Shown here: positions 28,055 through 57,317 of the stretch, in pieces
Numbering within the stretch: position 1 is the first letter of the stretch
Layout: every line of letters begins with the position of its first letter
From: Dehalococcoidia bacterium
GTDB lineage: Bacteria > Chloroflexota > Dehalococcoidia > Lucifugimonadales > UBA3495
Assembly (NCBI GenBank): GCA_963667675.1
Contig: OY763929.1
Span: 2,030,358-2,094,357, forward strand
DNA: 64,000 bases
Reading direction: 5' to 3'
The notes under the pieces: generated by a model
Seen by the model: the letters and a program-made list of their open reading frames with translations, nothing else
Told to the model about the DNA's origin: nothing
Database searches by the model: none
Program-made: the position numbers and the translations under genes

Positions 28055-28304
28055 CTCCGGCCTTGGTGTCCGTTTTCGTGTCTTGGGAATGCGTTGGCTT
28101 GGAATCTGGAGGTTCCCGTCGCCGCTCGGACTCCTGCTGCTCCAGGCTGGCCGCCTCGGCAACCTCGTTGAAGGTACGGCGCAGGTTGCTCAAGAACTTG
28201 CCCGCCGACCGCGCCGTGGATATGGACCGGCCGGGCCCCAGCACCAGGAAGGCGACCAAGAAGATGACCAATATCTCCAGGAGGCCGACGCCCATGAAGT
28301 TCAC
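28047..28304 (-). CDS. tatB: TatA/TatB family protein
   Basis: GLLEILVIFLVAFLVLGPGR, an amphipathic helix, then an acidic tail. ATGA overlap with the upstream fusion ORF. Confidence 0.8.
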   Translation of the reverse strand: MNFMGVGLLEILVIFLVAFLVLGPGRSISTARSAGKFLSNLRRTFNEVAEAASLEQQESERRREPPDSKPTHSQDTKTDTKAGDE

Positions 28305-30139
28305 GGCTGGCCCCCGTTATTGGGACAGCTTGGGCCGCATTCTCCCGGCGCGGGGGCGGTCTTCCAGTAGGTGGTGTCGCACCCCAGTCGTTCCAGCATC
28401 TGCTCCGCCAGGCACAAGGGCAAGCCGACAATGTTGCTGTAGCAGCCGTCCCACGACTCTGCCGGGCGCAGGGTCTGGTCCTGCACCCCGTAGCCTCCGG
28501 CTTTGTCCAGGGGAGCGCCGGACAGGACGTAGGCCTCCAGTTCCTCGTCGGAGAAGTTACGCAGGGTTATGTCACTGATCATCGCATCGGTCAGGATGCG
28601 CCCGGAGGCGGCGTCGATAACGGTGACGCCGGTGGTCACCTGGTGGCTAGTGCCCCTCAGCAGCCGCAGCATCCTGCGGGCGTCGTCGGCGTCTTCTGGC
28701 TTCCCTAGTGATTCTCCGTTTAGGACTACGGTGCTGTCGGCAGCCAGGATGTAGCCGTAGTCCATCCGGCTGGCCGCCGCCTGGGCCTTGGCCTGGGACA
28801 GGCGGGCGGTCATTTCCTGTGGCGATTCCCCGGCCAGGCTGTCCTCCGCCACGTCCGCCGGCATCACTTGAAAGCTCACCCCCAGGCCAGCCAGAAGCTG
28901 CCGCCTTCTGGGCGACGCCGAGGCCAGCACCATCGGGGCGGACGCTGCGGCGCGCTCTAGGAACGCGACGCACTCAACGTGGTGGGTCTGGGGAAACATG
29001 TCCAGCGGGACCACCTGCTTTAACGTGTAGTCGCTGTCGCAAAGGGGCTTCAGGTCCCGGGCCATGGTCTCGGCGTCGCAGGAAACGTAGGCCACCCGCG
29101 CCGGGGCAAGCTCTAGCAAGTTGTCCAAGGCTTTGGGTTGGCATCCGGCCCGGGGCGGGTCCAGCACCACCGCGTCGGGCTGGGCGTCCAAGCTGCCCAG
29201 GACTTCCTCGGTCCTGCCCAGCACAAACTCCAGATTGGGCACGCCAGCGGCATTGGCCCGGCAGTCGGCCACCGCCGCCGAGGACTCTTCCACCGCTACG
29301 ACCTTCTTGACGTGCGACGCCAGCAGGATGGCGAAGGCGCCAACCCCGGTGTAGGCGTCCAGCAGCACGTCATCCTGAGTCAACCGCAGGCCGCGGCGCA
29401 CCACCTCCGCCGCCTGGGCCGCCTGTTCCACGTTCACCTGGAAGAACGAGGGAGACGAAACCCGGAAGGTCTTGCCCGCCACAGAATCGGCGTAACTCTT
29501 CTGCCCGGTGGGAATGGTTATGTCCGGGTTGAACAACCTGGGCTGCACCAGGACATCGCCGGTCTCTTGACCAGCCCGCACCGAAAGCTGGGTGGTCTCC
29601 CAGCACTTGCCCTGGAGTTGGCCCAGGCATTCGTTGATTGCCCCGTGCATGATCATGCAGCGGTCGATGTCGACAAAGCGCCGGGAGGCCCGGTTGACGA
29701 AGCCCAGCACACCGCCGTCCCTGACGGTGAACCTGGCGTGGTTGCGGTAGTTCAGCTGGCGAGGGGACGGAATCACGGCGGCGACGGGAGGGTCGGTAAA
29801 TTGACCAATTCGCTGCAGCGCGTCGATGACCCTCTCCCGTTTGGTATCCAGTTGGTGCCTGTAACTGATATGCAGCCACTGGCAGCCGGTGCAGTCGCCG
29901 AAATAGGGGCACGGGGGTTCTACGCGGTGCGGCGACGGCTCCAGCACCTCCACCACCCGCGCCGCCAGCCGCCTGCGGCGAATGTCCACCACCTCGGCCA
30001 CCACCCTCTCGCCGGGGATGCCGCCGAAGACGAACACGTCCCACCCGTCATGGCAGGACATGGCTTCGCCCAGCCGGCCCCACGCGGTCAGTTCCAGGAC
30101 GAGCTTCTCGCCGACGACGGGTTTCACTGCTGTTGACAT
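28301..30139 (-). CDS. Fusion protein: RumA/RlmD-type 23S rRNA (uracil-C5)-methyltransferase + Maf nucleotide pyrophosphatase
   Basis: One uninterrupted 612-aa ORF. N-terminal part has TRAM, the Fe-S motif CPYFGDCTGC, SAM motif DAYTGVGAF and catalytic YVSCD. C-terminal part has LASASPRRRQLL and DKAGGYGVQ (Maf). Confidence 0.8.
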   Translation of the reverse strand: MSTAVKPVVGEKLVLELTAWGRLGEAMSCHDGWDVFVFGGIPGERVVAEVVDIRRRRLAARVVEVLEPSPHRVEPPCPYFGDCTGCQWLHISYRHQLDTKRERVIDALQRIGQFTDPPVAAVIPSPRQLNYRNHARFTVRDGGVLGFVNRASRRFVDIDRCMIMHGAINECLGQLQGKCWETTQLSVRAGQETGDVLVQPRLFNPDITIPTGQKSYADSVAGKTFRVSSPSFFQVNVEQAAQAAEVVRRGLRLTQDDVLLDAYTGVGAFAILLASHVKKVVAVEESSAAVADCRANAAGVPNLEFVLGRTEEVLGSLDAQPDAVVLDPPRAGCQPKALDNLLELAPARVAYVSCDAETMARDLKPLCDSDYTLKQVVPLDMFPQTHHVECVAFLERAAASAPMVLASASPRRRQLLAGLGVSFQVMPADVAEDSLAGESPQEMTARLSQAKAQAAASRMDYGYILAADSTVVLNGESLGKPEDADDARRMLRLLRGTSHQVTTGVTVIDAASGRILTDAMISDITLRNFSDEELEAYVLSGAPLDKAGGYGVQDQTLRPAESWDGCYSNIVGLPLCLAEQMLERLGCDTTYWKTAPAPGECGPSCPNNGGQP

Positions 30140-31009: not shown

Positions 31010-31106
31010 GGGAGTGGATAGGGCCCGGTGGCCCTTGCGGACTTCAAATCCGTTATGCCTCGTGACGAGCGGGGTAGGTGGGTTCGACTCCCTCGCACTC
31101 CCGCCA
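31010..31106 (+). tRNA. selC: tRNA-Sec (anticodon UCA)
   Basis: 97 nt. Acceptor GGGAGTG/CACTCCC, discriminator G and encoded CCA. 6-bp D-stem AGGGCC/GGCCCT with 4-nt loop CGGT (a tRNA-Sec hallmark). Anticodon loop CTTCAAA, long variable arm and T-loop TTCGACT. The layout parallels E. coli selC. The 8th acceptor pair and one T-stem pair are mismatched in my hand fold. Confidence 0.8.
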
Positions 31107-31229: not shown

Positions 31230-31838
31230 ATGCCAGAGGGAATGGACCTGTTCGAGGCAATACACACCCAGCGGGCCATCAGGTCTTTCAAGCCGGACCT
31301 CGTTCCGGACCATCTGATTACCACGCTGCTGGAAGCTGCCGTCAAGGCCCCCAACGGGGGCAACGTCCAAGACTGGCGGTTCATAGTCATCCGCGACCAA
31401 GAGACCAAGCGCAAGATTGGACAGTTGTATCGGACGGGAACCAGGTCCAAGATCGACCCCAACTGGCCCGCCCAGCGGCGAAGGATTTACACCTCGGCCC
31501 AGGAACTGGAGGACCATTTAGAGGAAGTGCCGGCGTTAATCCTGGTATGCATTCCGCCCTATCCAGGGGAGCCCAATCCGGGGGCGATGATATTCCCCGC
31601 CGTCCAGAACATACTGCTGGCCGCCCGAGGCCTGGGGTTGGGCAGCGTGTTGACCGTCAGGCAAAGCCGGCACGAACAGGAACTCAAAGAACTGCTGGAC
31701 ATACCAGAGGGCATGCAAACCGCGGCCTTGCTGCCCATTGGGTACCCCGCCGAAGGAGCCCGCTACGGCCCGACCAGCCGCAAGCCGGTGGCAGAAGTGG
31801 CCTTCAGAGAGACATGGGGGGATAGTTGGGGTCGTTAA
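31230..31838 (+). CDS. Nitroreductase family protein
   Basis: LFEAIHTQRAIRSFKPD...APNGGNVQDWRF is a typical nitroreductase N-terminus. Confidence 0.8.
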   Translation: MPEGMDLFEAIHTQRAIRSFKPDLVPDHLITTLLEAAVKAPNGGNVQDWRFIVIRDQETKRKIGQLYRTGTRSKIDPNWPAQRRRIYTSAQELEDHLEEVPALILVCIPPYPGEPNPGAMIFPAVQNILLAARGLGLGSVLTVRQSRHEQELKELLDIPEGMQTAALLPIGYPAEGARYGPTSRKPVAEVAFRETWGDSWGR

Positions 31839-36138: not shown

Positions 36139-37200
36139 ATGGGCCATCTCTACATAGGACGCAACCACCGGGGCGACCCGGATCTCGTGAGAAGCATATT
36201 TCGCCTGCTTGGCACAGATGAAGATGCTCTAACCTTCGCGTTGGGATATCTGCTAGCGCATTCTCCCTCCCTCTGTGCCAACCTGGTCCGGACCCTGGGC
36301 ATCAAACTTCGGCCACCTTTAGGGAATGACTACTCAATACACCTGCAGGAGGTGACCGAACCCGGCTTTGGCCGCAGGGACATCGTCATTGAAATCAGCG
36401 GGAAGATGCGGGTGGTATTAGAGGCCAAAGTAAGAGGTGCCGAACCTTCAGTCCAGCAGCTAACCAAGTACGCCAAAGAAAAGAAACTCTGGAGTTCATT
36501 CCAGGTTCGCATGATTGCGGCACTTACCCAAGTTAAGTTGCCTGAATCAAAAATAGAAGACGTTGAGTCAGAGCTGTGCAGCAATGGGATTGAATTCCGC
36601 GATGTCCAGTGGCATGAAATCATAGACTTAGTGCTTGGGCACGAGACCCAGAATGAGTCAGAATTTGCCAAGTACCTTTTGGATGAGTTCATCCGTTACT
36701 TAAGGAGTGACTACCGTATGGGATATTACGATGCTGAAGTGCTCATTCAAGACGTCAATCGCCTCAATAAGGACATTTTTGAGAACGGGTGGATGTACGT
36801 AACCGCTGTCAAAGATAAGCGGGCGCCTCTTTACTTTGCCCCCTACTTCACCAGAGAGTGCATAGATAGCGGTCTAAGATGGTTGGCACGTGTGCTAGAT
36901 ACAGAAGAAGTAGTATTGGCCACTAAGGGAGATGCTGTCGAAGGACCCACAGAAGACGAAGAACATCGCCGTAGATGGGGTTTGGGCCTGCGGAAACTGC
37001 GCGAGAGGGCCGTTAGGGAGGGATTTGCGGACGAGGTAGTCAGATTGCTTTATCTGGACCGCCCGCTCAGCTTCCGCAGCGCGCCGTTGACAAAGAAGGT
37101 ATTCAACAGCATTAACCCGTCGAAGAAGCAGATTCCGAACCAGATACCCAAGGGGTTCAGCCTGGGATTCGATGACCTTCTCAAGGCGGGCCCTGAATGA
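36139..37200 (+). CDS. Hypothetical protein with N-terminal PD-(D/E)xK nuclease-like motif and unknown C-terminal domain
   Basis: 353 aa and visibly A/T-richer. GRRDIVIE...VVLEAKV matches a D...E-x-K nuclease core. I recognise no family for the C-terminal ~170 aa. Confidence 0.5.
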   Translation: MGHLYIGRNHRGDPDLVRSIFRLLGTDEDALTFALGYLLAHSPSLCANLVRTLGIKLRPPLGNDYSIHLQEVTEPGFGRRDIVIEISGKMRVVLEAKVRGAEPSVQQLTKYAKEKKLWSSFQVRMIAALTQVKLPESKIEDVESELCSNGIEFRDVQWHEIIDLVLGHETQNESEFAKYLLDEFIRYLRSDYRMGYYDAEVLIQDVNRLNKDIFENGWMYVTAVKDKRAPLYFAPYFTRECIDSGLRWLARVLDTEEVVLATKGDAVEGPTEDEEHRRRWGLGLRKLRERAVREGFADEVVRLLYLDRPLSFRSAPLTKKVFNSINPSKKQIPNQIPKGFSLGFDDLLKAGPE

Positions 37201-37273
37201 ACTCAATTTGGGGAGTATGGCATGGGGCCAGAGCGGAATGGACAGGTTAGTTCCGTTCGAAGCCCCTCCTTGA

Positions 37274-37768
37274 TCAGGCAGCCTCCTCCGCGGCAGCCTT
37301 GAGGCCTTCCAGCGTCGCCTGCATGTTGCGGCGGTGCTCGCCGGTGCGGGCGGCGATTATGTCGTCCCGGCGGTCGGGTAGCTCGTCGATGCGGCGGGTG
37401 AGGCCCGACGGGCCGGGGCCCAGTTGGACCGTTTGCCGCACCCGGGTGCCCTGGCCCTCGGCAATGAGGTCGAATCGCCAGGTGGCCACGGCATTGGCGG
37501 GGTCGCCGACGGCCCAGGCAAACGACTTTCCGGACTCGGCCTCCACCACGGTTGACGTGGTCTCCCACTGGCGGCCTTCCCGGCTGTTGCGGCCCCGGAA
37601 CCTGGCGCCCACCGCGGGGCCGGGCGCCCCATCCAGCCAGTCGCCGCCGTTGTATTCCGGGCTCCACTCGCCAAGGAGGACGATGTCGGTTACCAGTCCC
37701 CATACGCGCTGGGGCGGGGCCTCGACGAATATCTCCACTTCGACACTGGGCAGGTCGTAACCGGACAT
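37274..37768 (-). CDS. SRPBCC (START/polyketide-cyclase-like) family protein
   Basis: 164 aa. VEAPPQRVWGLVTD...W has the family pattern. Confidence 0.7.
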   Translation of the reverse strand: MSGYDLPSVEVEIFVEAPPQRVWGLVTDIVLLGEWSPEYNGGDWLDGAPGPAVGARFRGRNSREGRQWETTSTVVEAESGKSFAWAVGDPANAVATWRFDLIAEGQGTRVRQTVQLGPGPSGLTRRIDELPDRRDDIIAARTGEHRRNMQATLEGLKAAAEEAA

Positions 37769-37857
37769 AGGGCCTCCTTATATAGGAAGTGTAGGGCGCC
37801 GGATGCCGCGTCACCATGCCTGTGCGGTTCTGCGATGGCCGCCACCGGTCTTCTCCC

Positions 37858-38853
37858 TTAGGGGTTGACGAACATCTCAAAGTTGGTGTCCACGCCGTAC
37901 TTGGCGAAAACGTCGTCGACCTGGCGCATGGCGTCGGGATGGATTGACCAGCCCACGGCGCCCAAATCTTCTTCCAGTTCGTCGAGGCTGAGGATGCCGG
38001 CGACGGCGACGCTGACTGTCGCGTTGTCCAGGGACCAGTTCAGCGCCAACTGGGGCACGGTCTTGCCCAGGCCGGCGGCGATGGGCTTCAACTCGTTGAC
38101 CAGTTGGATGTTGCGGCCGAAGACCTCGTTGGCATACTGCCCGACGATCACCTCGGGCACGGTGTCCCCCATGGACCTCCAGTCTTTCTCGCCGAACTTG
38201 GTGTCTTCGGTGAAGACGCCGCCCAACAGGCCGGAGGCCAATGGTCCCCAGGCCATCACGCCGATTCCGTGCTGCCGGCAATAGGGGAATATTTCCTGCT
38301 CCATCCTGCGGTCGAAGAGGTTGTGCTGGTACTGCACCACGTCAATCCGCCGGGTCGCCTGGCATTCCTCTAGCTGGGCCACGGTGAAGTTGCCAACCCC
38401 TACGTACCGCACCTTGCCCTGCTGCACCACGCTGTCCAGGGTGTCCATGGTCTCTTCGAAGGGGGCGTTGGTGTCGGGGAAGTGAATCAGCAGCACGTCG
38501 ATGTAGTCGGTTTGCAGCCTTTCCAGGCTCTGGTCGACCAGGGGCAGGATGGCCTCCCGGCGGCTGTCGCGGTACCTGGGCCTTTCGGGGAAGCCGAATC
38601 CGCACTTGGTTACCAACACCACGTCTTTGCGACGCGCGCCAAGGGTATTGCCCAGCATGCGCTCGGAATCGCCGCCGCCGTAGTTGGGCGCGGTATCGAA
38701 GCAAGTGATTCCCTGGTCGATGGCGCGATTCACCACGGCGCTCATCCTGTCGCTGTACTCCGGCCCCCAATACACCGAGGCGGCGGCGTCCCAGCACCCC
38801 ATACCCAAGGCTGAAACCGTCAAGTCCGTGGAGCCAAATTTGCGGTATTCCAT
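37858..38853 (-). CDS. Aldo/keto reductase (paralog of 34271..35257, opposite orientation)
   Basis: MEYRKFGSTDLTVSALGMG... is collinear with the other AKR. Confidence 0.85.
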   Translation of the reverse strand: MEYRKFGSTDLTVSALGMGCWDAAASVYWGPEYSDRMSAVVNRAIDQGITCFDTAPNYGGGDSERMLGNTLGARRKDVVLVTKCGFGFPERPRYRDSRREAILPLVDQSLERLQTDYIDVLLIHFPDTNAPFEETMDTLDSVVQQGKVRYVGVGNFTVAQLEECQATRRIDVVQYQHNLFDRRMEQEIFPYCRQHGIGVMAWGPLASGLLGGVFTEDTKFGEKDWRSMGDTVPEVIVGQYANEVFGRNIQLVNELKPIAAGLGKTVPQLALNWSLDNATVSVAVAGILSLDELEEDLGAVGWSIHPDAMRQVDDVFAKYGVDTNFEMFVNP

Positions 38854-40381: not shown

Positions 40382-40801
40382 GAGGGAGCCTCCGATGGCG
40401 GGATACGGCCCAATATACTACCGGCGGGGGCAGGCATCAATCGGCGCCGGCGGGGGGACTGGAGACCGCTGATTGAGTTTTGCTGTTCGCTCCCATATAA
40501 TTGATTATGTGAACCAGGTGCGGGGACATTGGGCTGGGAAGTCACTGTTCCTCCTTAGCAGCCATTGCATTGACGTGATGCGCTGTAGTCGTATCCACAA
40601 CCCTAGCAATCATTGATATTAATGTATCGGTAGTATTTCCAATTTGCTATTGACGGCAAAAGGGGCAAAGATATTTAATATCAGGCAAGTGGGGTTCCCG
40701 ACGGGACTGCGCCATTTACTATTGGCGTAATCCCCACAAGTGGGAGCAAGTGAATTGTTGGGAGGTAAACTTGGTTAATGTGGCAGAAAGAGGAGGCATA
40801 A

Positions 40802-42292
40802 ATGGCTGACAAGGATCTAGCACTGATGGCCCACCTGCTCCGCCGTGCTGGGTTTGGCGCAAGCCGCGACGAACTCGAGGCCAGAGTAGCCCAAGGCTAT
40901 GACAACGTAGTGGAAGAGTTGCTGAATCCGGGCGAAGGCTTCGGAGTCGCGACCGACGAGCTGTTCCGAGCACATCCGAACTTCATCGAGGGGGCGGACT
41001 TTGCTTTCGCCGCCAGCGAAATCACCTACCGGATGATCAACAGCAAGCAACAGTTGAAAGAGAAGATTGCGTTGTTCTGGCACACCATTCTCTGTTCAGC
41101 AGACAGCAAGGTGTGCAACGAAAGGAACAACATCCTACAGTACGAATACTTCCGGGAGCATGGCCTGGGCAACTTCAAAGACATGCTGATGTTCATTTGC
41201 CAGGACCCCTGCATGCTCTACTACCTGGACAACCAGGAAAACCACAAGAACGCCCCCAACGAGAACTTCGGCCGAGAGCTGCTGGAACTGTTCTCGATGG
41301 GCGTAGGCATGGACGGCGACTTCAACTACACCGAGGACGACGTCAAGGCCTGCGCCAGGGCCTTCACCGGCTGGCACATTGCCCCCAACTACCCCCTGTT
41401 CCCCTATGGACGGACCCCCTTCCAGTTCCGCTATGACGCCACCGAGCATGACGACAGCGAGAAGACGTTCCTGGGCGAGACGGGCAACTGGAACGGTGAA
41501 GAGGTAGTCGACATCATCTGCAAGCAGCCGGCCACGGCCCGGTTCATTTCCCGGAAGCTGTACGACTGGTTCGTTGCCGACGAGACGCCGACCCGGACTT
41601 GGAGGCTGTCGGAGCCCAGGGACCGAAAGGCGCTGGAGATGCTGGAGAAGGCCTACTTCGACTCCGGCTACGAAATAGGCGAGATGCTGCGGGTCATGTT
41701 CAAATCGGACTTCTTCAAGGACGAGTCGGTCCATTTTGCCAAGGTGAAGAACCCGGCAGAGTTGGTGGCTGGCACCGTTCGCTTGGCGCAGGCCATATAC
41801 GACCAGGAAGACGCCGCCATCCTGGCTACCCAGTCCAGGCAACGGGGCGAAGGCAACGCCCCGCCGGGACTGGAGGAAGGCCTGCTGACCACGCACATGG
41901 AAATCAAGTACATGGGCATGGAACTGCTGCAGCCGCCCACCGTGGAAGGCTGGCAGATGGGCCAGGAATGGATGAACAGCGGCAGCCTTGTCGACCGGGT
42001 CAACTTCGCCACCAGGACCTTCGGCGACACCGCTCTTCCCGGCGTACAGTCGATGGTCGGCCGCCTGATGGCCCAAGGCGAGGCGTTGAACGCCGAGCAG
42101 GTGGTGGACGGCTCCCTGGACCTGATGGGCCCCCTTACCGTGGACGCCGACACCCGTCAGGAGATGGTCGAACACGTATCCAAGGGCGGGCCCATGCGCC
42201 ACGGCACGGACGAAGAGAAAGCTGAATTTACCCGACGGGCGTCACAGGTATTCCAACTGATCGCCAGCACGTCGGCCTACCAGTTCGGTTAA
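40802..42292 (+). CDS. DUF1800 family protein (copy 1)
   Basis: HLLRRAGFGAS N-terminal hallmark. 496 aa. No signal peptide visible. Confidence 0.75.
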   Translation: MADKDLALMAHLLRRAGFGASRDELEARVAQGYDNVVEELLNPGEGFGVATDELFRAHPNFIEGADFAFAASEITYRMINSKQQLKEKIALFWHTILCSADSKVCNERNNILQYEYFREHGLGNFKDMLMFICQDPCMLYYLDNQENHKNAPNENFGRELLELFSMGVGMDGDFNYTEDDVKACARAFTGWHIAPNYPLFPYGRTPFQFRYDATEHDDSEKTFLGETGNWNGEEVVDIICKQPATARFISRKLYDWFVADETPTRTWRLSEPRDRKALEMLEKAYFDSGYEIGEMLRVMFKSDFFKDESVHFAKVKNPAELVAGTVRLAQAIYDQEDAAILATQSRQRGEGNAPPGLEEGLLTTHMEIKYMGMELLQPPTVEGWQMGQEWMNSGSLVDRVNFATRTFGDTALPGVQSMVGRLMAQGEALNAEQVVDGSLDLMGPLTVDADTRQEMVEHVSKGGPMRHGTDEEKAEFTRRASQVFQLIASTSAYQFG

Positions 42293-42339
42293 ACCGAGCC
42301 CTATCGAGAGACATCAAACCAGTAACGGAGGTAGCGAGC

Positions 42340-43494
42340 ATGGTATCAACAAAGAAGGACCCGACGCTGGCAGTAGTGTTCCTGTCGGGCGGCAACGACG
42401 TGATGAACACGTTGATCCCCTATGACGACCCCAACTATTGGGACCGCCGTCCCAACGTGAGGGTTCCGGAAGACCAGATCGTGCCGTTTACGGACGGCCT
42501 GGGCTTCCATCCGGCCTTTGCTCCCATGAAGAGGTTCTGGGACGAGGGCAAGATGGCCATCATACTGGGCACGGGATATCCCCACGGCACCATGTCCCAC
42601 TTCCGCTCCGCGGACATCTGGGCCACGTGCGAGCCGGTGGAGCTCCTGATGGACGGTTGGCTGGGCCGAACGATTCAGGCCCTGGACCCCAACGTGGAGA
42701 ACGTGCTGACCGGCGTCAACTTCGGCCGCGGTCTGCCCAGGGCGATGGCCAAAGAGGGAGTGCCGGTGGCGTCCGTTGGAGACCTGAGCATGTACGGTCT
42801 CATGACGGACTTCGAAAAGGAAGAAGAGCGCAAAGAGGCGCTGGACCTGTTCGGACGCATGTATGCGCCGCGCGTCGGCACAGGCGCGGTGGACGGCTTC
42901 ATCCGGAGCCTGGGAACCGCGGCGCTGAGAGGCGCCGACATTCTCGCCACTGCTCCGTCCAAGTACCAGTCCGACGTCGAATACGAGGTAGGCAATGTGG
43001 GCGAGTACCTGAAGGACATGGTCCAGGTGCACAACGCCGGATTCGGCACCAAGATCATGTTCACCCAGTCCCCGTACAACCAGTGGGACACCCACGCCAA
43101 CCAGCTTGGCGCCAACCTGCTGGCCCGAGGTCACGGGGCGTTGCTGGCCAACCAGGCCAACAACACCGACGCCTTCTTCAACGACCTGCGCAACCTGGAC
43201 ATCAGCGACAACGTCACGGTGCTGATCTACTCCGAGTTCGGGCGCCGGGCCCAGGACAACGGCTCGGGCACCGACCACGGCGCAGGCGGAGCGGCCTTCG
43301 TCATCGGCGACCATGTCAAGGGCGGCCTCTACGGCGAATATCCGTCCCTGAAAGAGTCGGAACTCGACGACGACGGCAACCTGACGTGGTCCGTCGACTT
43401 CCGGTCCATCTACACCACCCTGCTGGAGCGATGGATGGGCCTGGACGCCAAGCCCATAGTGGGCGGGTCCTACGAGCAGTTGGCTTTCCTGTAA
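42340..43494 (+). CDS. DUF1501 family (sulfatase/alkaline-phosphatase-fold) protein
   Basis: VVFLSGGNDVMNTLIPY...SEFGRR...GTDHG is the family pattern. It lacks the Tat signal usual for this family. Confidence 0.75.
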   Translation: MVSTKKDPTLAVVFLSGGNDVMNTLIPYDDPNYWDRRPNVRVPEDQIVPFTDGLGFHPAFAPMKRFWDEGKMAIILGTGYPHGTMSHFRSADIWATCEPVELLMDGWLGRTIQALDPNVENVLTGVNFGRGLPRAMAKEGVPVASVGDLSMYGLMTDFEKEEERKEALDLFGRMYAPRVGTGAVDGFIRSLGTAALRGADILATAPSKYQSDVEYEVGNVGEYLKDMVQVHNAGFGTKIMFTQSPYNQWDTHANQLGANLLARGHGALLANQANNTDAFFNDLRNLDISDNVTVLIYSEFGRRAQDNGSGTDHGAGGAAFVIGDHVKGGLYGEYPSLKESELDDDGNLTWSVDFRSIYTTLLERWMGLDAKPIVGGSYEQLAFL

Positions 43495-43691
43495 GCGGGC
43501 GCACTGCCGACAGGCAAGCCGGAGGCAGCTCCGGGACTGAACCAAGACCAGGGAAAGTTGCGCTGCCCCGCGGAAACGTGGAGCAGCGCAATCCTGATTC
43601 AGGACATGTCTATGTTGGCCGGCGCAGCGCCGTGACGCAGCCCCGGTCCAGCTAATCCCGTAAACAAGCTTTTGGCATTAGGAGGCTAATC

Positions 43692-44804
43692 GTGGCTAGT
43701 GTTCTAGTAGGTGTCACCGACCGATATTTCAGCTACGCATTCACCGTCGGCGGCGCCGGTTTCCGCATTCCGGTGGACATCGCTTTTGCGCCCGGCGACA
43801 TTTTCTACTCCCTGACCCGGGGCTACGAGCACCCGCCGAGGAGGAACCTCAACTGCCGGGTCAAGATGATGGGCATGACCGACGAAGGCGAGGAGTTGAT
43901 TACCCATTTCGGCGAGCTCGGCTCGGAGCCCGGCAAGTTCGTTTGGCCCGCCTCCATCGAGATAGACGACGATGTCAACGTCTACGTGTTGGACGAATAC
44001 TTGGCCCGGGTAACCGTCTTCAACAAGGAAGGCGAGTTGCTGAACCATTGGGGCGACAAATACGGCTCCGGCGACGGTGAGATGAGCAGGCCGTCGGGCA
44101 TGGCCCGGCGGGATGACGTCCTGTACATCGTCGACAGCAAGAACCACCGGGTCCAGAAATTCAGCCTGGACGGCAAGTACATAGGCCAGTTCGGTAGCTA
44201 CGGCTCCGAAAATGGCCAGTTGGACTCCCCCTGGGGCATCGACCTGGACAAAGACGGCAACATCTTTCTCGCCGACTGGCGCAACGACCGCATCCAGTCC
44301 TTCACCGCCGACGGCGAGTGGCTGGCCACGTTCGGAAGGCCCGGCACTGGTGGGGACACGGACATAGTCCGGCATCACGGCGGACTGAGGCTGGTGGAAC
44401 GCACCGCGGGAGAATTCAACCGACCCTCAGGCGTCTGCGTCGACGACGATGGGGACATCTACGTAGCCGACTGGCTCAATAACCGGGTGCAGATACTCAC
44501 GGCGGACGGCAAATACATTACCCAGATAACCGGCAACGCCGGCCTGTCAAGGTCGGCCAAAGAGCAGCTGGCGCCCGCCCCAGACTTGATCCGGCAGCGC
44601 AACCTGGCGCTGCAGGAGTCGTCAATCCAGGAGAAGTTGCTGTGGAGTCCCAACAACGTCAAGTTCGAACAGAACCGCAGCAGGCTATGGATCTCTGACT
44701 CCAACCGGCACCGGTTCCAGGTCTACCAGAAGAACACCGAGTCGGTGCTTAACAACTTGGAAACGCTCACCATGCAGGGAGCTATCCAAGGGCAGGTGGC
44801 CTAG
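43692..44804 (+). CDS. NHL-repeat beta-propeller protein (copy 1)
   Basis: GTG start 6 nt after AGGAGG. Repeated ..P.G...D.DGN.YV.D..N.R.Q.F blades. Confidence 0.75.
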   Translation: MASVLVGVTDRYFSYAFTVGGAGFRIPVDIAFAPGDIFYSLTRGYEHPPRRNLNCRVKMMGMTDEGEELITHFGELGSEPGKFVWPASIEIDDDVNVYVLDEYLARVTVFNKEGELLNHWGDKYGSGDGEMSRPSGMARRDDVLYIVDSKNHRVQKFSLDGKYIGQFGSYGSENGQLDSPWGIDLDKDGNIFLADWRNDRIQSFTADGEWLATFGRPGTGGDTDIVRHHGGLRLVERTAGEFNRPSGVCVDDDGDIYVADWLNNRVQILTADGKYITQITGNAGLSRSAKEQLAPAPDLIRQRNLALQESSIQEKLLWSPNNVKFEQNRSRLWISDSNRHRFQVYQKNTESVLNNLETLTMQGAIQGQVA

Positions 44805-44968
44805 TCACCAGCCCATCGGCGTTGGCTTGGGGAGCGACCTCCAAGCCAATGGCGTAACGCCGCAGGATAAGCATCAGAATCGCCGGTGTGCCGGGGGAAA
44901 CTTCCGAGCCGCCGGCGATTGCTTTTTGGGGCAAAGTCCCGTTAATACCGCAATAAGGGGAGACACGA

Positions 44969-46459
44969 ATGGCTGACAAGGACCTGGCATTGATGGCCCA
45001 CCTGATGCGGCGCGCCGGTTTCGGCGCCAGCCGGGATGACCTGGAGGCCAAGGTAGCGCAAGGCTACGACAACGTGGTGGAAGAGCTGTTGAACCCCGGA
45101 GACGACCCTGGCATCGAGGTAGACGAGCTGTTCCGGTATTTTCCCGATTACGTCGAAAGCGCAGACTTCGCCTATGCCGCGAGCGAACTCGCCTACCGGA
45201 TGATCAACAGCAGGACCCAGCTAAGAGAGAAAATCGCGCTGTTCTGGCACACCGTCCTCTGCGCGGCCGACAGCAAGATATGCAACGAACGCAACAACAT
45301 GTTCCAAATCGACCATTTCCGGGACCACGGGATGGGCAACTTCAAGGACTTGTTGAAGTTCATCGCCAGGGACCCGTGCATGCTCTACTACCTGGACAAC
45401 CAGGAGAACCACAAAGACGCCATCAACGAGAACTTCGGCCGTGAACTGTTGGAGTTGTTCTCCATGGGCGTCGGGATGGACGGCGACTACAACTACACCG
45501 AAGACGACGTCAAGGCCTGCGCCAGGGCCTTCACCGGCTGGGGCATGGCCCCCAACGCTCCCCTGTTCCCCTACGGCCGGACCCCTTTCCAGTTCCGCTA
45601 TGACCCAGGGGACCACGACGACGAGGAGAAGACGTTCCTGGGCGAGACGGGGAACTGGAACGGCGACGACGTCATAGAGATCATCTGCAAGCAGCCGGCC
45701 ACGGCCCGATTCATCTCGCGAAAACTGTACGACTGGTTCGTGGCCGACGAAGCGCCGACGCGCACTTGGCGGCTGTCGGAGCCGCGGGACAGGGAGGCGT
45801 TGCAGGCCCTGGAGAAGGCCTACTTCGACTCCGGCTACGAAATAAAGGAGATGCTGCGGGTCTTGTTCACCTCCGATTTCTTCAAGGACGAGTCGGCCCA
45901 CTTCGCCAAGGTGAAGAACCCCGCCGAACTGGTGGTGGGTACCATTCGCATGGCCCAGGCCCTGTACCAACAGCCGCGGGCCGGGGTGCTCACGGCACAG
46001 CGCAGGGAGCGAGGCGAAGGGGGCGCACCGCCGGGCGTCGAGGACGGCATGCTGGCCACCCACCTGGAAATGAAGTACATGGGGATGGAACTGCTGCAGC
46101 CGCCCACGGTGGAGGGCTGGCAAATGGGCCAGGAATGGATGAACAGCGGCAGCCTGGTCGACCGGGTCAACTACGCTACCAAGGTGTTTGGGGACGCCGA
46201 GCTTCCGGGGGTCAGGTCGATGATCGACCGCCTGATGGCCATGGGCGAGGCCCCAACGGCCGAGCAGGTGGTCGACGGTTCGCTGGACCTGATGGGGCCC
46301 ATGACGGTGGACGACGCGACCCGCCAGGAGATGGTGGACCACGTGACCGCCGGCGGGGAGATGCGCCACGACACGGAAGCGGAGCGAGCGGAATTCGCCC
46401 GGCGCGCGTCCCAGGTGTTCCAACTCATCGCCAGCACGTCGGCCTACCAGTTCGGCTAG
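44969..46459 (+). CDS. DUF1800 family protein (copy 2)
   Basis: Same length (496 aa) as copy 1 and identical at most aligned positions by eye. Confidence 0.75.
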   Translation: MADKDLALMAHLMRRAGFGASRDDLEAKVAQGYDNVVEELLNPGDDPGIEVDELFRYFPDYVESADFAYAASELAYRMINSRTQLREKIALFWHTVLCAADSKICNERNNMFQIDHFRDHGMGNFKDLLKFIARDPCMLYYLDNQENHKDAINENFGRELLELFSMGVGMDGDYNYTEDDVKACARAFTGWGMAPNAPLFPYGRTPFQFRYDPGDHDDEEKTFLGETGNWNGDDVIEIICKQPATARFISRKLYDWFVADEAPTRTWRLSEPRDREALQALEKAYFDSGYEIKEMLRVLFTSDFFKDESAHFAKVKNPAELVVGTIRMAQALYQQPRAGVLTAQRRERGEGGAPPGVEDGMLATHLEMKYMGMELLQPPTVEGWQMGQEWMNSGSLVDRVNYATKVFGDAELPGVRSMIDRLMAMGEAPTAEQVVDGSLDLMGPMTVDDATRQEMVDHVTAGGEMRHDTEAERAEFARRASQVFQLIASTSAYQFG

Positions 46460-46549
46460 AGAACTGGCCCATGGGCAACGCCCCGCGCCGCCAGGGGAGC
46501 GGTCTCGCTCGACGTTTATGTAAACCTGCCAAATGCGTAGGAGGAAATC

Positions 46550-47665
46550 GTGGCAAGCGTATTGCTAGGGGTTACCGACCGGTTCTACACCTACAGCTTC
46601 ACCGCCGGCGGTCCCGCCCAGTTCTTGCGCATCCCGATAGACATCGTTCTGGCGCCTGACGACGTAATCTACGCGGTCAACCGGGGCTACGAACATCCCA
46701 TCGGCAACGCCAACAACGTTCATATCAAGGTCCTCAAGCTGGACGACGACGGGGAAGAGATGATCACCCGGTTCGGCGCTTACGGAGCGGAGCCCGGGCA
46801 GTTCCGCTGGCCCACGTCGATTGCCCTGGACAGCGACACCAACGTCTACGTGTGCGACGAGTTCCTGCACCGCATCACCATCTGGGACAAAGAGGGCGAG
46901 TACCTGGGCCATTGGGGCACGCTGGGGTCCGGCGACGGCGAGATCAACGGGCCTGCAGGCCTGGCCATCCGGGACGACGTCATGTTCCTGGTGGACAGCC
47001 AGAACCACCGGGTGCAGAAGTTCACCCTGGACGGCAAGTACATCGGCCAGTTCGGCAGCTTCGGGGACGGGCCGGGCCAACTGAACAACCCGTGGGGCAT
47101 CGGCTTGGACAAGGACGGCAACGTGTTCATTGCCGACTGGCGCAATGACCGCATCCAATCCTTCACCGCCGACGGCGAGTGGATGGCCAGCTTTGGAACT
47201 CCCGGCACCGGCGGGAACACGTCGATAGCCAGGGTAAACGGCGGCATCAGGAAGACTCCCCTCCCCTTGGGGGTGTTCAACCGGCCCTCGGGCGTCTGCG
47301 TGGACAATGACGGGGACATCTACGTTGCCGACTGGCTGAATAACCGGGTGCAGGTCTTGACGGCGGACGGCAGGTTCATCACCGAGATAACCGGGGATGC
47401 CGGCCTATCCAAGATGGGCGCAGAGCAACTGGCGCCGGCTCCCGATATGATTCGGCAGCGCAACCTGGCATTGCAGATGGACTCGGGCCAGGAGAAGACG
47501 CTGTGGGCGCCGATGGCGGTGAAGTTCGACGAGAAGCGGCGGCGGCTGATCATAGTCGACACCGCCCGCAAACGGCTCCAGATATACCAGAAGAGCACAG
47601 AGGCGATATTGACCAACCGAGAGACGCTGACCCCGGAAGGTGCGTACAAGGGGCTGGTGGCTTAG
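46550..47665 (+). CDS. NHL-repeat beta-propeller protein (copy 2)
   Basis: GTG start after AGGAGG. Collinear with copy 1 (371 vs 370 aa). Confidence 0.75.
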   Translation: MASVLLGVTDRFYTYSFTAGGPAQFLRIPIDIVLAPDDVIYAVNRGYEHPIGNANNVHIKVLKLDDDGEEMITRFGAYGAEPGQFRWPTSIALDSDTNVYVCDEFLHRITIWDKEGEYLGHWGTLGSGDGEINGPAGLAIRDDVMFLVDSQNHRVQKFTLDGKYIGQFGSFGDGPGQLNNPWGIGLDKDGNVFIADWRNDRIQSFTADGEWMASFGTPGTGGNTSIARVNGGIRKTPLPLGVFNRPSGVCVDNDGDIYVADWLNNRVQVLTADGRFITEITGDAGLSKMGAEQLAPAPDMIRQRNLALQMDSGQEKTLWAPMAVKFDEKRRRLIIVDTARKRLQIYQKSTEAILTNRETLTPEGAYKGLVA

Positions 47666-47718
47666 CCGGATAGCCAGGCCCATTTGACAGGGGTCGCACA
47701 CCGCAACGGCCTAACCAA

Positions 47719-47751
47719 GTGACCCCGGCGATGAGCCGGGGTCACTTCTTA
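47719..47751. terminator. Hairpin terminator between convergent genes
   Basis: gtgaccccggc-gatga-gccggggtcac (11-bp stem) followed by ttctta. Lies between the NHL gene (+) and the MFS gene (-). Confidence 0.6.
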
Positions 47752-47764
47752 CCGGGAACAGCTA

Positions 47765-49896: not shown

Positions 49897-50068
49897 GCCT
49901 TTCTCCCCGGCAGATAAATGTCGCACTGTGCGCTGATTGCCTACCCAGATAGCTCGGAAATGCCGGTTTGGGCAGGTTGGGCGAATCTACCACCCGCCGC
50001 CGCGGCCAGTCAATAGGCTGCCATGGCCCCCCGATATTGACCCTCCAATACCCGTGTGCTAGATTGCG

Positions 50069-50536
50069 GAAGAGAGCCAAACAGGCCGGGTGACCGCCGC
50101 GAGGGCTCCGATTCGTCGGGGTCGTCGGGGAGGAAAGTCCGGGCTCCTCCGGGCAGGGTGCTGGGTAACGCCCAGGCTTCCACGGCGGGTCTCCGATACG
50201 TCGGAGCCTCTGTGGGGGACGGAAAGTGGCACAGAAACATACCGTCCTTCCGGCAACGGGAGGATAAGGGTGAAATCGGACGGTAAGAGCGTCCGGTCGT
50301 CTACGGTGACGGAGCGACGGCCAAACCCCACCTGGAGCAAGGCCAAATAGGGGGGCTATGGGCGCCCGGCCCGTCCCCGGGTTGGCCGCTCGACCTCGGT
50401 GGCAACACCGTCCCGCCTGTGCGGGAACCCGGCGGCCCTCAGGCCGTTGGGTGGGCTAGATAGATGGTCACCGTCCTTGTTCCAATCTAGGTGCAAGGAT
50501 ACAAAACCCGGCTTACAGGCCTGCGTGGCTCTCTCT
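50069..50536 (+). ncRNA. rnpB: RNase P RNA, bacterial type A
   Basis: Conserved regions match E. coli M1 RNA. These are GGAGGAAAGTCCGGGCTCC (50129..50147), AAGGGTGAAA..GGTAAGAGCG (~50264..50290), AGCAAGGCCAAATAGGGG (~50335..50353) and ACAAAACCCGGCTTACAG (~50501..50518). P1 pairs gagagcca..caggcc with ggcctg..tggctctc. End coordinates are +/- a few nt. Confidence 0.9.
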
Positions 50537-50709: not shown

Positions 50710-51366
50710 ATGTACCTGGACCTGCACAGCCACTCGGCCTCGTCCGACGATTCCCGTTCCACAGTCGAGCAATACCTGAAATGGGTCCAGGTGCTGCGCA
50801 AACGCGGCCACACCGTGGACGGCATCGTGCTCACCGAGCACCGCAAGTTCGACTTCGACAAGGACTACCGCAGCCTGGCCGAGACCTACAGCGTGCTGGT
50901 GCTGAAGGGCTCGGAACTGGACACCCGCTACGGGCATTTCCTGGTCTACGGCGTGACCGAGAAGCTGGCGCAAGAGATCGACTTTGCCGACGTGTATATG
51001 GACGCTCGCGAACTGATAAAGGCCGCAGAACACCACAGCGCGGTGGCCGTTCCCGCCCACCCGGGACGCCCCGGCATCGGCCTGGCCGACTACGTTGACC
51101 AGGGCGAGGTCTTCGACGACGTGGGCATTGTGGAAGTCCTGAACGGCGGCAGCCGTAGGGGAGAGAACGAGCGCGCGCAGCGGCTTCGCGAGGAGTACGG
51201 CTATCGAGGCATCGGCGGCAGCGATGCGCACTTGACCAGCCACATCGGCGCCTGCATGACCCGTTTCGAGGACAGCATTTCAAGCGAGCGAGAGCTGGTC
51301 GAGGCCATCTTGCACGGCCGGTACGAGCCGGTGTGGTTGGAAGCTGCCGCAAACGTAGCCGGGTAG
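50710..51366 (+). CDS. PHP-domain metal-dependent phosphoesterase
   Basis: MYLDLHSHS... and GGSDAHL motifs. Confidence 0.75.
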   Translation: MYLDLHSHSASSDDSRSTVEQYLKWVQVLRKRGHTVDGIVLTEHRKFDFDKDYRSLAETYSVLVLKGSELDTRYGHFLVYGVTEKLAQEIDFADVYMDARELIKAAEHHSAVAVPAHPGRPGIGLADYVDQGEVFDDVGIVEVLNGGSRRGENERAQRLREEYGYRGIGGSDAHLTSHIGACMTRFEDSISSERELVEAILHGRYEPVWLEAAANVAG

Positions 51367-51425
51367 CCTCGCAGACACACGCAGAGGAACACCAACTCCA
51401 TAGGGTTTGGACAACAGCGGTTGGA

Positions 51426-51875
51426 ATGGCGACTGAACTGGAATACGACCGGTCTATTCACGAAAAAGAATTCCCGGCGGGGCCATTCGAGGTTACCAAG
51501 GAACAGATCCGGGCTTTCGCTGAGAGTCTTGGAGAAACCAACCCGGTGTTCCTGGACGAGTCGGCGGCTCAAGAAGCAGGGTACAGCAGCATAGCGGCGC
51601 CTCCGACCTTTTGCACGCTGCTGATAGATGGATTGAAGCTGCCGGACATCGGCTTGAGGTTCGGTCGGCTGCAGGCCCAGGCCGGGTCGCGGGTACGTGT
51701 TTTCGCCCCCGTCGTGGCCGGCGACCGGCTGACCTCGTGCTCCCGCTTGAAGGACGTGTACGCCAAGACAGGACGCAGCGGGCCGATGGTGTTCTGCCTG
51801 TGGCAGCACACGTTCCGAAACCAGGACGGGCAGGTCGTCGCCGAGGTCACCCAGTCTTTCGCTCGCCGGGAATGA
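51426..51875 (+). CDS. MaoC-like (hotdog-fold) dehydratase, N-terminal-type subunit
   Basis: EQIRAFAESLGETNPVF..DE.AA..AGY...APPTF is the pattern of FAS1-like/HadA-type subunits. Start at the ATG at 51426. Confidence 0.65.
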   Translation: MATELEYDRSIHEKEFPAGPFEVTKEQIRAFAESLGETNPVFLDESAAQEAGYSSIAAPPTFCTLLIDGLKLPDIGLRFGRLQAQAGSRVRVFAPVVAGDRLTSCSRLKDVYAKTGRSGPMVFCLWQHTFRNQDGQVVAEVTQSFARRE

Positions 51876-51974
51876 TTTGGCGCTTCTCCCGGATGGCGGT
51901 TCTGCGCTCCCGGTCGGCGGGGACTTGTACGATTTTGGCAACGCCGAAGGATAGACTGCGCCGGTTTGACTGAC

Positions 51975-52415
51975 ATGACTTTGCCAAGCTTTGACGACAT
52001 TGAATTGGGGGACGAGATCGGCCCGGTGCAGACCGAGGCCACGGACGAGGCGGTCCTGGCTTTCTGCCGGGCGTGGGGCGACATGCGATTCACGCCCAAC
52101 CGCTTTACCGACCCGGAGATTGCGCGAGAGAACGGGCAGGCGGCGCCCATAGTGCCCGGCATCATGGCCCTGGCAATGATGGCCCGAATGCTGACCGAAT
52201 GGGGCGGAGCCGCGTCGGTCAGGGACCTGGACGCCGTCTTCCGGCAGCCGGTGCCTCATCACGCGCCCATTACTATAGCGGGAACTATCATCGACACCCG
52301 CCGGGAAGACGGCGAGAACCTAGTGGAGTGCGACGTTCTCATGACGGGCGCGCAGGGTGAACGCTATGTCACCGCCAAGGCGGTCTTGGCATTGCCCGAC
52401 CGGGTCGGCGTCTGA
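51975..52415 (+). CDS. MaoC-like (hotdog-fold) dehydratase subunit
   Basis: Hotdog-fold pattern adjacent to the partner subunit. Start at the ATG at 51975 (the ORF track starts at the TTG at 51966). Confidence 0.65.
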   Translation: MTLPSFDDIELGDEIGPVQTEATDEAVLAFCRAWGDMRFTPNRFTDPEIARENGQAAPIVPGIMALAMMARMLTEWGGAASVRDLDAVFRQPVPHHAPITIAGTIIDTRREDGENLVECDVLMTGAQGERYVTAKAVLALPDRVGV

Positions 52416-52481
52416 CGGGACTGGGCCGATGCGCCGGATAGGCCGGCCCCGGCCACCACAGCAACCACTGGGAATCGCGGG

Positions 52482-53552
52482 ATGACCCGGAGCCAAGAAG
52501 CAGAGCCGATGCAGAGTCATAGACACACCGATGGCGAACACCATGGGCTCGGCGACGCCGGATCGGCGGAGGGCGGGCCGCCGGAGCACGGGCACAGCCA
52601 CGGGGCCATAGACCGGGCGGTCCTGGGCAGCAGCCGGGGCATCTGGGCCACCAAGGTCTCCCTGGTGGGTCTTCTGGCCACCGCCAGTATGCAGGTAGTG
52701 GTCGTCGTTTTCACCGGGAGCGTGGCCCTGCTGGCTGATACGATACACAATTTCGGCGACGCTTCCACGGCACTGCCCCTGTGGGCGGCGTTTACCCTGG
52801 CCCGGCGCATGCCCACCCGCCGGTTCACCTATGGCCTGGGGCGGGTCGAAGACCTGGCAGGGCTGGTTGTAGTCGTCCTCATACTGGTCTCCGGGGTCTT
52901 GGCGGGGTACACGTCCATTACCCGGCTGTTCGACCCGCCGGAAATCGACTTCCTTTGGGCGGTGGCCGCCGCGGCGATTGTGGGGTTCCTGGGCAACGAA
53001 GCGGTGGCCCTGTTCAGGATAAAGATTGGCAGGGAAATCGGGAGCGCGGCCCTGGTGGCCGACGGTCTGCACGCCCGGGTGGACGGCCTGACCAGCCTGG
53101 CGGTGCTGGCGGGGGCCATTGGGGTCTGGCTGGGCGCCCCGCTGGCCGACCCCATCGCCGGCCTGGTGATTACCGCGGCCATCTTCCGCATCGTGTGGCA
53201 AGCAGGCAGGTCGGTCTTCTCCCGCCTGCTGGACGGCGTGGAGCCGGAGGCGGTCGACGAGGTCCGCGAGGTCGTGGCATCCACTGAAGGAGTGGAAGAA
53301 GTCACCGAGGTGCGGATGCGGTGGCTCGGCCACACCATGCTTGCCGAGGTCAATCTGGCCGTACGGCCGGACTTGTCGGTGGCCCAGGGCCACGAGATAG
53401 CCGTGGAAGCGCGTCACCAACTCATGCACCACCTGCAGTACCTGGCCAACGCCACCGTGCACGTGTGCCCCGTAGGGTCGTCCGGTGAGGAGTACCACCG
53501 ACTGGCCGAAGACCACCACCAAGACGGCGACGCCGGTCGTCACGGGGGTTAG
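52482..53552 (+). CDS. Cation diffusion facilitator (CDF) metal efflux transporter with His-rich termini
   Basis: ALLADTIHNFGD and LVADGLHARVD TM motifs. His-rich N-terminus (HRHTDGEHHG..HGHSHG) and C-terminus. Confidence 0.8.
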   Translation: MTRSQEAEPMQSHRHTDGEHHGLGDAGSAEGGPPEHGHSHGAIDRAVLGSSRGIWATKVSLVGLLATASMQVVVVVFTGSVALLADTIHNFGDASTALPLWAAFTLARRMPTRRFTYGLGRVEDLAGLVVVVLILVSGVLAGYTSITRLFDPPEIDFLWAVAAAAIVGFLGNEAVALFRIKIGREIGSAALVADGLHARVDGLTSLAVLAGAIGVWLGAPLADPIAGLVITAAIFRIVWQAGRSVFSRLLDGVEPEAVDEVREVVASTEGVEEVTEVRMRWLGHTMLAEVNLAVRPDLSVAQGHEIAVEARHQLMHHLQYLANATVHVCPVGSSGEEYHRLAEDHHQDGDAGRHGG

Positions 53553-55736: not shown

Positions 55737-55899
55737 CTTGTCACCTAATGGTAGTCCACTATTTTGACATCCTACACATCGTCGTCAAGCTCTGTCGGGC
55801 CGTGGTTTGCGCCGGTTGCCAAAGCAGCCAAGGCTAACCTATCCTTAGGGCAGTCCGTTGGAAACCTATAGTATTCCCGGCTTGTAAGGAGCGGTGTTG

Positions 55900-57285
<1,386 letters not shown>

Positions 57286-57317
57286 CCCGGTTAACATCCG
57301 GGTAAGTTTATGTCAAT

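Follow-up and report, generated by a model that had tools for sequence, protein, structure and literature searches.

Why would a bacterium keep two tandem copies of a small gene cassette when only one of them holds the full set of genes? The question is raised by a 64,000-nucleotide stretch of a Dehalococcoidia genome (GenBank assembly GCA_963667675.1, contig OY763929.1, positions 2,030,358 to 2,094,357 of the forward strand), which we call the window. Between its positions 40,802 and 47,665, the window carries a DUF1800 gene, a DUF1501 gene and a gene for an NHL-repeat protein, followed by a second DUF1800 gene and a second NHL gene. The architectural and evolutionary part of our answer, namely that this is a signal-less, NHL-linked module that underwent an old duplication, is one in which we have high confidence. 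What the encoded proteins may do inside the cell is proposed below at lower strength.

Two diverged cassettes, one of them without DUF1501

The list of open reading frames (ORFs) placed the five genes, all intact and on the + strand, exactly at the coordinates given in a preliminary description of this DNA. DUF1800a (40802..42292, ATG start) encodes a 496-aa protein that is predicted to be all-alpha and has no signal peptide; it matched Pfam PF08811 with 340.7 bits, the gathering cut-off being 26.1. DUF1501 follows (42340..43494, 384 aa, ATG start, no signal for twin-arginine translocation (Tat); PF07394, 77.7 bits for a cut-off of 27), and then comes NHLa (43692..44804, 370 aa; PF01436, 96.4 bits for a cut-off of 20). 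The second cassette is made of their paralogs DUF1800b (44969..46459, 496 aa, ATG start, 339.2 bits) and NHLb (46550..47665, 371 aa, 94.9 bits). Both DUF1800 proteins spanned positions 1-418 of the 419 of the PF08811 profile, and neither DUF1800 nor DUF1501 showed even a weak Pfam match to another family at E <= 10. All five ORFs begin at the first start codon past an in-frame stop. The AGGAGG that had been reported ahead of the GTG starts of both NHL genes was indeed present, 6 nt upstream of each. As described earlier, the second copy lacks DUF1501: the 90-nt spacer between DUF1800b and NHLb held no remnant of it, and tblastn of the window revealed no additional copies of the cassette genes. 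Cassette 1 is a triad of adjacent genes on one strand whose products have no signals, and cassette 2 is a pair-only form.

A first possibility was that copy 2 is an artefact of assembly, or a duplicate in decay. DUF1800a and DUF1800b were 80% identical in protein sequence, without gaps, NHLa and NHLb were 64% identical, and at the DNA level the paralog pairs showed 71-80% identity. Unitigs from two independent public short-read runs tiled the junction between NHLa and DUF1800b (44277-45010) with 0 mismatches, and likewise that between DUF1800b and NHLb (46126-47018). Moreover, the five-gene layout recurred in two related Dehalococcoidia genomes, at loci L001 and L180, together with the same neighbours, that is, an HbpS-like gene upstream and MFS and isochorismatase genes downstream. 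These junctions, seen in independent unitigs and in two related genomes, indicated an old duplication and refuted the artefact. A tree of DUF1800 proteins placed the b-copies from the window and L001 as sister to the a-copies, which indicated that the duplication is older than the split between the window and L001 lineages.

Divergence between paralogs amounted to 0.73-0.78 synonymous substitutions per site (dS), and nonsynonymous divergence (dN) was 0.265 for NHL versus 0.128 for DUF1800. Comparison with the orthologs in L001, where DUF1800a is 91% identical, gave dN/dS values in the range 0.06-0.13 for each of the five genes, those of cassette 2 among them (DUF1800a, 0.095; DUF1800b, 0.058; NHLa, 0.126; NHLb, 0.097). 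All five genes are under purifying selection. The intact frames of copy 2 and the low values of its two genes ran against decay, and the chance that copy 2 is either artefact or relic is negligible.

The NHL gene accompanies DUF1800 and DUF1501

We asked whether the NHL gene is a chance neighbour. An alignment of NHL homologs, searched against one genome per species, yielded 80 loci, and the labels of nearly all of them read Dehalococcoidia, Chloroflexota or SAR202. In 78 cases, DUF1800 lay directly upstream of the NHL gene and in the same orientation, and the two exceptions were cut by contig ends. Metagenome contigs searched with DUF1501 provided 80 further loci, about 70 of which had enough flank to be informative. 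The full DUF1800-DUF1501-NHL triad was present in 64 of these ~70 loci, and about six deviated, some by a permuted order. As judged from these labels, the module appears specific to Dehalococcoidia of the SAR202 type. Adjacency was retained down to 28-31% NHL identity, and the triad was kept in the distant signal-less relatives L171 and L175, at 35-45% identity.

The genes around the module were unrelated from one locus to the next. The largest non-cassette gene cluster among flanking ORFs covered 25 of 82 loci, and a census of the Pfam families of 108 upstream neighbours returned 89, none of them dominant; polyprenyl synthase (11), DAO (8), ABC permease (6) and MFS (4) were among those that recurred. 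We also considered a conserved fourth gene or functional neighbour, and both the clustering and the census gave clade-level synteny only. Thus, the coupling to NHL proposed in the preliminary description is not due to chance: it was found from the NHL side and from the DUF1501 side, amid unrelated flanking genes.

Transporter genes recurred upstream of the module, not consistently. For instance, in the distant signal-less triad of L175 (145-2543), a gene for a Peripla_BP_2 solute-binding protein shares 4 nt with the start of DUF1800, and the triad of L004 comes after three SBP_bac_5 genes and two genes for permeases. Importers near the module are a recurrent but inconsistent observation.

NHL propellers serve as generic scaffolds in many settings, and the evidence that ties NHL to the module comes from gene context. 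One could therefore argue that the NHL gene is a neighbour conserved by synteny, with an unrelated function. However, adjacency held in ~95% of loci, whichever gene was used as query, and it extended to the lowest NHL identities and across the whole range of upstream families. It also survived permutation of the order: L162 (755-4409) reads DUF1501-DUF1800-NHL, and at L046 (6370-14722) a pair sits beside an inverted cassette ordered DUF1800-NHL-DUF1501. Lastly, the NHL gene was found solely with signal-less pairs. A mere neighbour is therefore very improbable.

Export signals in the module and in its relatives

All five proteins lacked transmembrane segments and hydrophobic N-termini, which bore out the earlier statement that all are signal-less. 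Among relatives, an upstream in-frame stop left no room for an N-terminal extension in 51 of 86 DUF1800, 56 of 75 DUF1501 and 69 of 89 NHL genes, and the extensions possible in the remaining ones were neither conserved nor signal-like. The DUF1501 protein of the window begins 8 residues ahead of its first strand, with no RR motif and no hydrophobic region. The conserved DUF1800 motif LLRRAGFG could mislead a Tat predictor; it is a piece of the domain itself, and the residues after it are hydrophilic.

We then compared DUF1501 with its wider family, using a phmmer search of 1.84 billion cluster representatives that returned 12,189 relatives. The closest ones (45-53% identity) begin like the window protein. 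From ~40% identity down, most have 35-55 extra N-terminal residues, which hold a classic S/T-R-R-x-F-L Tat motif and a hydrophobic stretch. Nine loci of this Tat type, six from plasmid records and three from metagenome contigs, were examined. Each had the DUF1800-DUF1501 pair, none had an NHL gene nearby, and in six of them DUF1800 was without a signal of its own. The view that missing signals are unusual in this family was thus right for DUF1501, which lost its Tat signal, and wrong for DUF1800, which is often signal-less at exported-type loci too. The presence of NHL coincided with the absence of the Tat signal, and the informative change in the clade is that DUF1501 lost this signal and that NHL was gained. 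The loss does not stem from the absence of a Tat pathway, as the window itself encodes TatC (27284-28162, - strand, Pfam 217 bits).

A hitch-hiker mode of Tat export is known, in which a folded complex is exported on the signal of one partner. In the exported relatives, a folded DUF1800-DUF1501 complex may likewise leave the cell on the Tat signal of DUF1501, and a DUF1800 without signal in six of nine loci is what such hitch-hiking would lead one to expect. This behaviour of DUF1800, and the TatC gene in the genome, would also suit a different view of the module, in which its proteins continue to leave the cell, be it by a non-classical pathway or by riding on some other partner that bears a signal. 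Yet, all three kinds of protein in the module lacked a signal, and no conserved fourth gene was found beside theirs, so that we give this view very little credit.

As a side observation, five distant DUF1501 proteins (P0467, P0461, P0477, P0473 and P0442) had C-terminal sorting domains of the type IX secretion system (T9SS), and one of them also had a dockerin. These tails suggest that some family members are surface-displayed or released. A 969-aa protein, P0504, looked like a DUF1800-DUF1501 fusion; the part between its two domains retains an internal Met and the whole of a Tat signal, and it most likely represents two genes read through or a gene-calling artefact. It was therefore discarded as a Rosetta-stone link between the two families.

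Features of the three proteins

The Pfam match of DUF1501 covered residues 241-372 only, and phmmer aligned residues 6-384 with canonical members. All residues that are 99-100% conserved in 126 diverse members were kept in the window protein: D20, S86-H87-F88, D250, H252, E299-F-G-R302-R303, D312-H313-G314, D353 and R355. They make up the family-invariant motifs GGxD, SHF, DxH, EFGRR, DHG and DxR. Searches of the PDB by sequence and by profile found no match to DUF1501. An AlphaFold2 model was obtained with a predicted local distance difference test (pLDDT) score of 63 and a predicted template-modelling score (pTM) of 0.72. When it was compared with the PDB by Foldseek, all 50 matches listed (the best of 60 at E <= 0.001) belonged to the alkaline-phosphatase superfamily, among them LtaS, sulfatases, YejM/PbgA and alkaline phosphatase, with E values from 4e-5 to 6.5e-4. 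We take DUF1501 to be a member of the Pfam alkaline-phosphatase clan.

DUF1501 has residues of the kind seen in this superfamily, namely a conserved Asp behind its first strand, a Ser at a nucleophile-like position and Asp-His pairs. The preliminary description had spoken of a sulfatase-fold subunit, and at the putative metal/nucleophile site every family-invariant residue was retained, in a pattern compatible with the superfamily. In contrast, no similarity exists at the sequence level, and S86-H-F-R stands in place of C/S-x-P-x-R. This formylglycine motif was absent from DUF1501, the conserved Ser having the context M-S86-H-F-R-S; the sole C-x-P, in C97-E-P-V-E, comes without Arg, and Pfam Sulfatase gave no match even at E <= 10. 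From these residues we infer that DUF1501 is not a formylglycine sulfatase, and that it may be a metal-dependent enzyme with Ser86 as nucleophile, acting on a phosphate-type or sulfate-type ester.

The NHL proteins matched solved six-bladed NHL domains with E values from 1e-35 to 1e-56, the sequence match of NHLa being to the NHL domains of Thin and TRIM71 (E 8.5e-56). NHLa is thus predicted to be a six-bladed NHL beta-propeller. It shares six NHL repeats with ScyF of the scytonemin cluster, with the PknD sensor and with the TRIM-NHL proteins, and the ScyF model matched at E 1e-48. Nevertheless, both window proteins failed the equivalog test for ScyF (NF035926), with 165.9 and 159.3 bits for a cut-off of 350. 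They also differ from these known proteins in having no signal, PEP-CTERM, kinase or RING/B-box domain, and in being stand-alone and, by prediction, cytoplasmic, with a ~90-residue insertion and tail.

For DUF1800, the PDB gave no match either by sequence or by profile. A similarity of DUF1800 to phycobilisome proteins has been claimed (PMC12981691), and our PDB searches lent it no support.

Putative regulatory DNA and transcripts

A promoter-like site (TTGAGT, 17 nt, TATAAT; 40473..40501, + strand) lies ~300 nt before DUF1800a. It agrees with the consensus at 10 of 12 positions and is kept in L001, a 90%-identity relative, amid intergenic DNA that diverges; it was recognized by its consensus match only. 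Further down, a leader block of ~70 nt (40640..40715, + strand) was near-invariant between the window and L001, again with diverging DNA around it. This block includes TTGACG...TATTTAAT and a short GTTCCCGACGGGAC hairpin. The 420-nt leader, this block included, and the spacers had no Rfam match, that is, no riboswitch or known RNA was found in them.

Two strong hairpins occupy the space between the cassettes (44820..44929, + strand; folding energy -68.7 kcal/mol, z = -4.7). The second one (44879-44919), with UUGCUUUUUGG behind it, resembles a terminator. This hairpin and its U-rich tail were kept in L001, the stem with sequence changes. The preliminary description had raised the possibility that the 7-kb block is one operon; this conserved terminator-like hairpin speaks against it, and the block is probably not one simple operon. 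Downstream, the convergent gap between NHLb and the MFS gene holds a 13-bp GC-rich hairpin with a U-rich tail, a predicted terminator (47717..47752, folding z = -5.0).

Sponge metatranscriptome contigs ~91% identical to the window spanned the DUF1800 stop and the DUF1501 start, which points to transcription across this junction in close relatives. Separately, word depth in sponge metagenome and metatranscriptome contigs was high over short conserved parts of the three genes (41141-41634, 42623-42869, 43117-43363, 44105-44351, 44846-45092, 45340-45586 and 46822-47068), with a peak of ~10,000 at 43117-43363, the GTDHG region. Contig depth is no valid measure of expression and we claim presence only. 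Such very high values imply that many paralogs or homologs of the module are present, and transcribed, in sponge microbiomes.

One DUF1501 for several pairs, or an autonomous pair

How can the second cassette do without DUF1501? We counted gene copies over 161 loci. One each of DUF1800, DUF1501 and NHL was found in 124 loci. Other counts, given in that order, were 1, 1 and 2 (five loci), 2, 1 and 2 (one locus), 3, 0 and 3 (one locus) and 1, 0 and 1 (six loci), and none of the 161 loci had two DUF1501 genes. The pair-only form of DUF1800 and NHL arises at at least five separate places in the DUF1800 tree. Hence, the pair without DUF1501 is a recurrent architecture and not an oddity of the window locus, as it had first seemed. 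In one case, L073 (1109-8972), three DUF1800-NHL pairs follow one another in tandem, with no DUF1501 within 17 kb. The replicon that bears L180 also bears a separate pair-only locus, L051, which makes a supply of DUF1501 in trans plausible. Across loci, NHL evolves the fastest and DUF1501 the slowest of the three proteins.

We propose that an exported DUF1800/DUF1501 pair lost its export signal, gained an NHL propeller and came to work inside the cell. DUF1501 would be the catalytic subunit, hydrolysing or transferring a phosphate-type or sulfate-type ester, DUF1800 its obligate partner, and the propeller would provide substrate recognition or a second activity. The substrate would be imported and then processed in the cytoplasm. 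At the window locus, one DUF1501 would most likely serve both DUF1800/NHL pairs, and the second pair would be an old lineage-specific duplicate that is diversifying its specificity. Taken in full, that is, two diverged tandem copies of a cytoplasmic DUF1800/DUF1501 derivative with a fixed NHL partner and a shared, catalytic DUF1501, this explanation seems to us reasonably probable. A more specific mechanism, in which DUF1501 is a Ser-nucleophile esterase and DUF1800 and NHL are its specificity modules, can be put forward only tentatively, and we doubt that it is correct in every part. One may go further and picture a modular cytoplasmic enzyme made of a constant DUF1501 and interchangeable, specificity-setting DUF1800/NHL pairs, which Dehalococcoidia of the SAR202 and sponge-symbiont type would have multiplied to widen the range of imported organic esters that they degrade, the move from periplasm or cell surface to cytoplasm and the propeller gain being one evolutionary step; this remains speculative and, as a whole, unlikely.

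One DUF1501 for several pairs agrees with the copy-number pattern. An autonomous pair agrees with it equally. According to the latter, DUF1800 and NHL would form a unit of their own, DUF1501 would be an accessory kept by some loci, and cassette 2 would work alone. The repeated appearance of the pair-only form in the tree, the three tandem pairs of L073 and the six further pair-only loci are all in line with autonomy, as are the strong purifying selection on the pair-only genes of the window and the conserved terminator-like hairpin that parts cassette 2 from cassette 1. Autonomy is harder to reconcile with the 124 loci that hold exactly one of each gene, with DUF1501 being the most conserved of the three proteins, and with the occurrence of DUF1800 with DUF1501 outside the clade. 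Besides, with several loci per genome, as for L051 and L180 on one replicon, DUF1501 can always act in trans. An autonomous pair is thus possible, albeit rather unlikely in our eyes.

Several points weigh against a shared, catalytic DUF1501 at the heart of a cytoplasmic module. No biochemical or structural data on DUF1800 or DUF1501 were found in the literature or in the PDB. The TM-scores of the DUF1501 fold matches were only 0.3-0.44, from a model that is poor by its pLDDT, and the assignment of Ser86 as nucleophile and of the metal ligands draws on residue conservation and on what is generally known of the superfamily. For DUF1800, the AlphaFold2 model, built from a 33-sequence alignment, was of low confidence (pLDDT 61), and Foldseek against the PDB returned nothing below E 0.8. 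Pair-only loci without DUF1501 within 17 kb, such as L073, suggest that DUF1501 is perhaps dispensable in cis, and perhaps altogether. The conserved hairpin separates the cassettes, which may therefore be regulated separately. Lastly, the RNA evidence from sponges consists of contigs of relatives, in which carry-over of DNA is possible.

Other features of the window

Some observations concern the rest of the window. A bacterial class A RNase P RNA (50078-50531, + strand, 215.9 bits) lies 2.4 kb downstream of the cassette, and the small ORFs that overlap it on both strands (50059-50350) are surely spurious. A selenocysteine tRNA (31010-31106, + strand), on which ARAGORN and Rfam agree, adjoins a gene of the nitroreductase family (31230-31838). 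The segment 24001-26000 has the lowest GC of the window (0.54 versus ~0.63) and carries an ORF (24389-25729, - strand) for an AAA_21/AAA_15 ATPase, AbiEii/OLD-like; it could represent a small island of the mobile or defence type. The region 7905-12419 stands out by its exceptionally strong skews, with GC skew up to +0.19 and AT skew of -0.20. Its 1504-aa ORF (- strand), with fibronectin type III domains at the N-terminus only, may encode a large repetitive surface protein.

Two further ORFs on the - strand are of unusual build. One of 612 aa (28301-30139) joins a tRNA (uracil-5)-methyltransferase to a C-terminal Maf, an unusual fusion if the frame is real. The other (4863-6371) encodes a 502-aa ThyX (Thy1) that matched its family in two stretches and is about twice as long as usual; this protein may be an internally duplicated flavin-dependent thymidylate synthase. 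Long ORFs without Pfam match at E <= 1e-3 were found at 36139-37200 (+), 37203-37880 (-), 51201-52262 (-) and 52320-53543 (-), and another one, at 55834-57297 (-), had none at E <= 1e-5. Some of these may be shadow ORFs in GC-rich DNA. The syntenic region upstream of the cassette in L001 has Polyketide_cyc2 and PLDc_2 genes instead of the Pfam-less ORFs of the window.

Relation to known systems and significance

DUF1800 and DUF1501 have been described as a co-transferred operon of unknown function, the DUF1501 protein bearing a Tat motif (PMC5122149). This canonical operon, found in Proteobacteria, Bacteroidota, Actinomycetota and others, has the same Pfam pair as the window, in the same order, DUF1800 then DUF1501, and with a short spacer. 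Homology extends over the full length of the proteins, at 25-40% identity, and the invariant DUF1501 residues are the same. In the canonical operon, however, DUF1501 has its Tat signal, sometimes with T9SS or dockerin tails, and DUF1800 sometimes has a Sec-type signal, whereas the clade of the window has no signals and has NHL as a fixed third member, absent from all nine canonical loci.

A second known system comprises the DUF1501 modules of the PVC superphylum, in which DUF1501 is the key protein, bears a signal and has cytochrome-like partners (PMC3542564). As in the window, DUF1501 goes there with a large partner of unknown function, each genome holds a great many such modules, and they are combined with propeller or other binding domains, such as the WD40 protein of four-gene clusters. 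They differ in that they belong to another phylum and that the partner is PSCyt/PSD1 (DUF1549/DUF1553), with a cytochrome-c motif, and not DUF1800; in addition, the PVC proteins bear signals or Tat motifs, and the membrane or periplasm is their presumed destination. The literature searched mentions the DUF1800/DUF1501 pair in passing only, and it yielded nothing on Dehalococcoidia, on a cytoplasmic form or on a partner of the NHL type. The signal-less, three-component and multiplied variant is apparently distinct and undescribed.

DUF1800 and DUF1501 are among the more widespread bacterial pairs of unknown function. The clade described here offers a tractable entry point to them, since its proteins are soluble and expressible without Tat export, the catalytic-type residues are intact and a third partner is defined. 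The carriers of the module are SAR202-type Dehalococcoidia from deep-ocean, soil and sponge metagenomes, bacteria that are thought to degrade recalcitrant organic matter. A module that is multiplied in them, and that is apparently transcribed in sponge microbiomes, bears on the question of what these bacteria consume.

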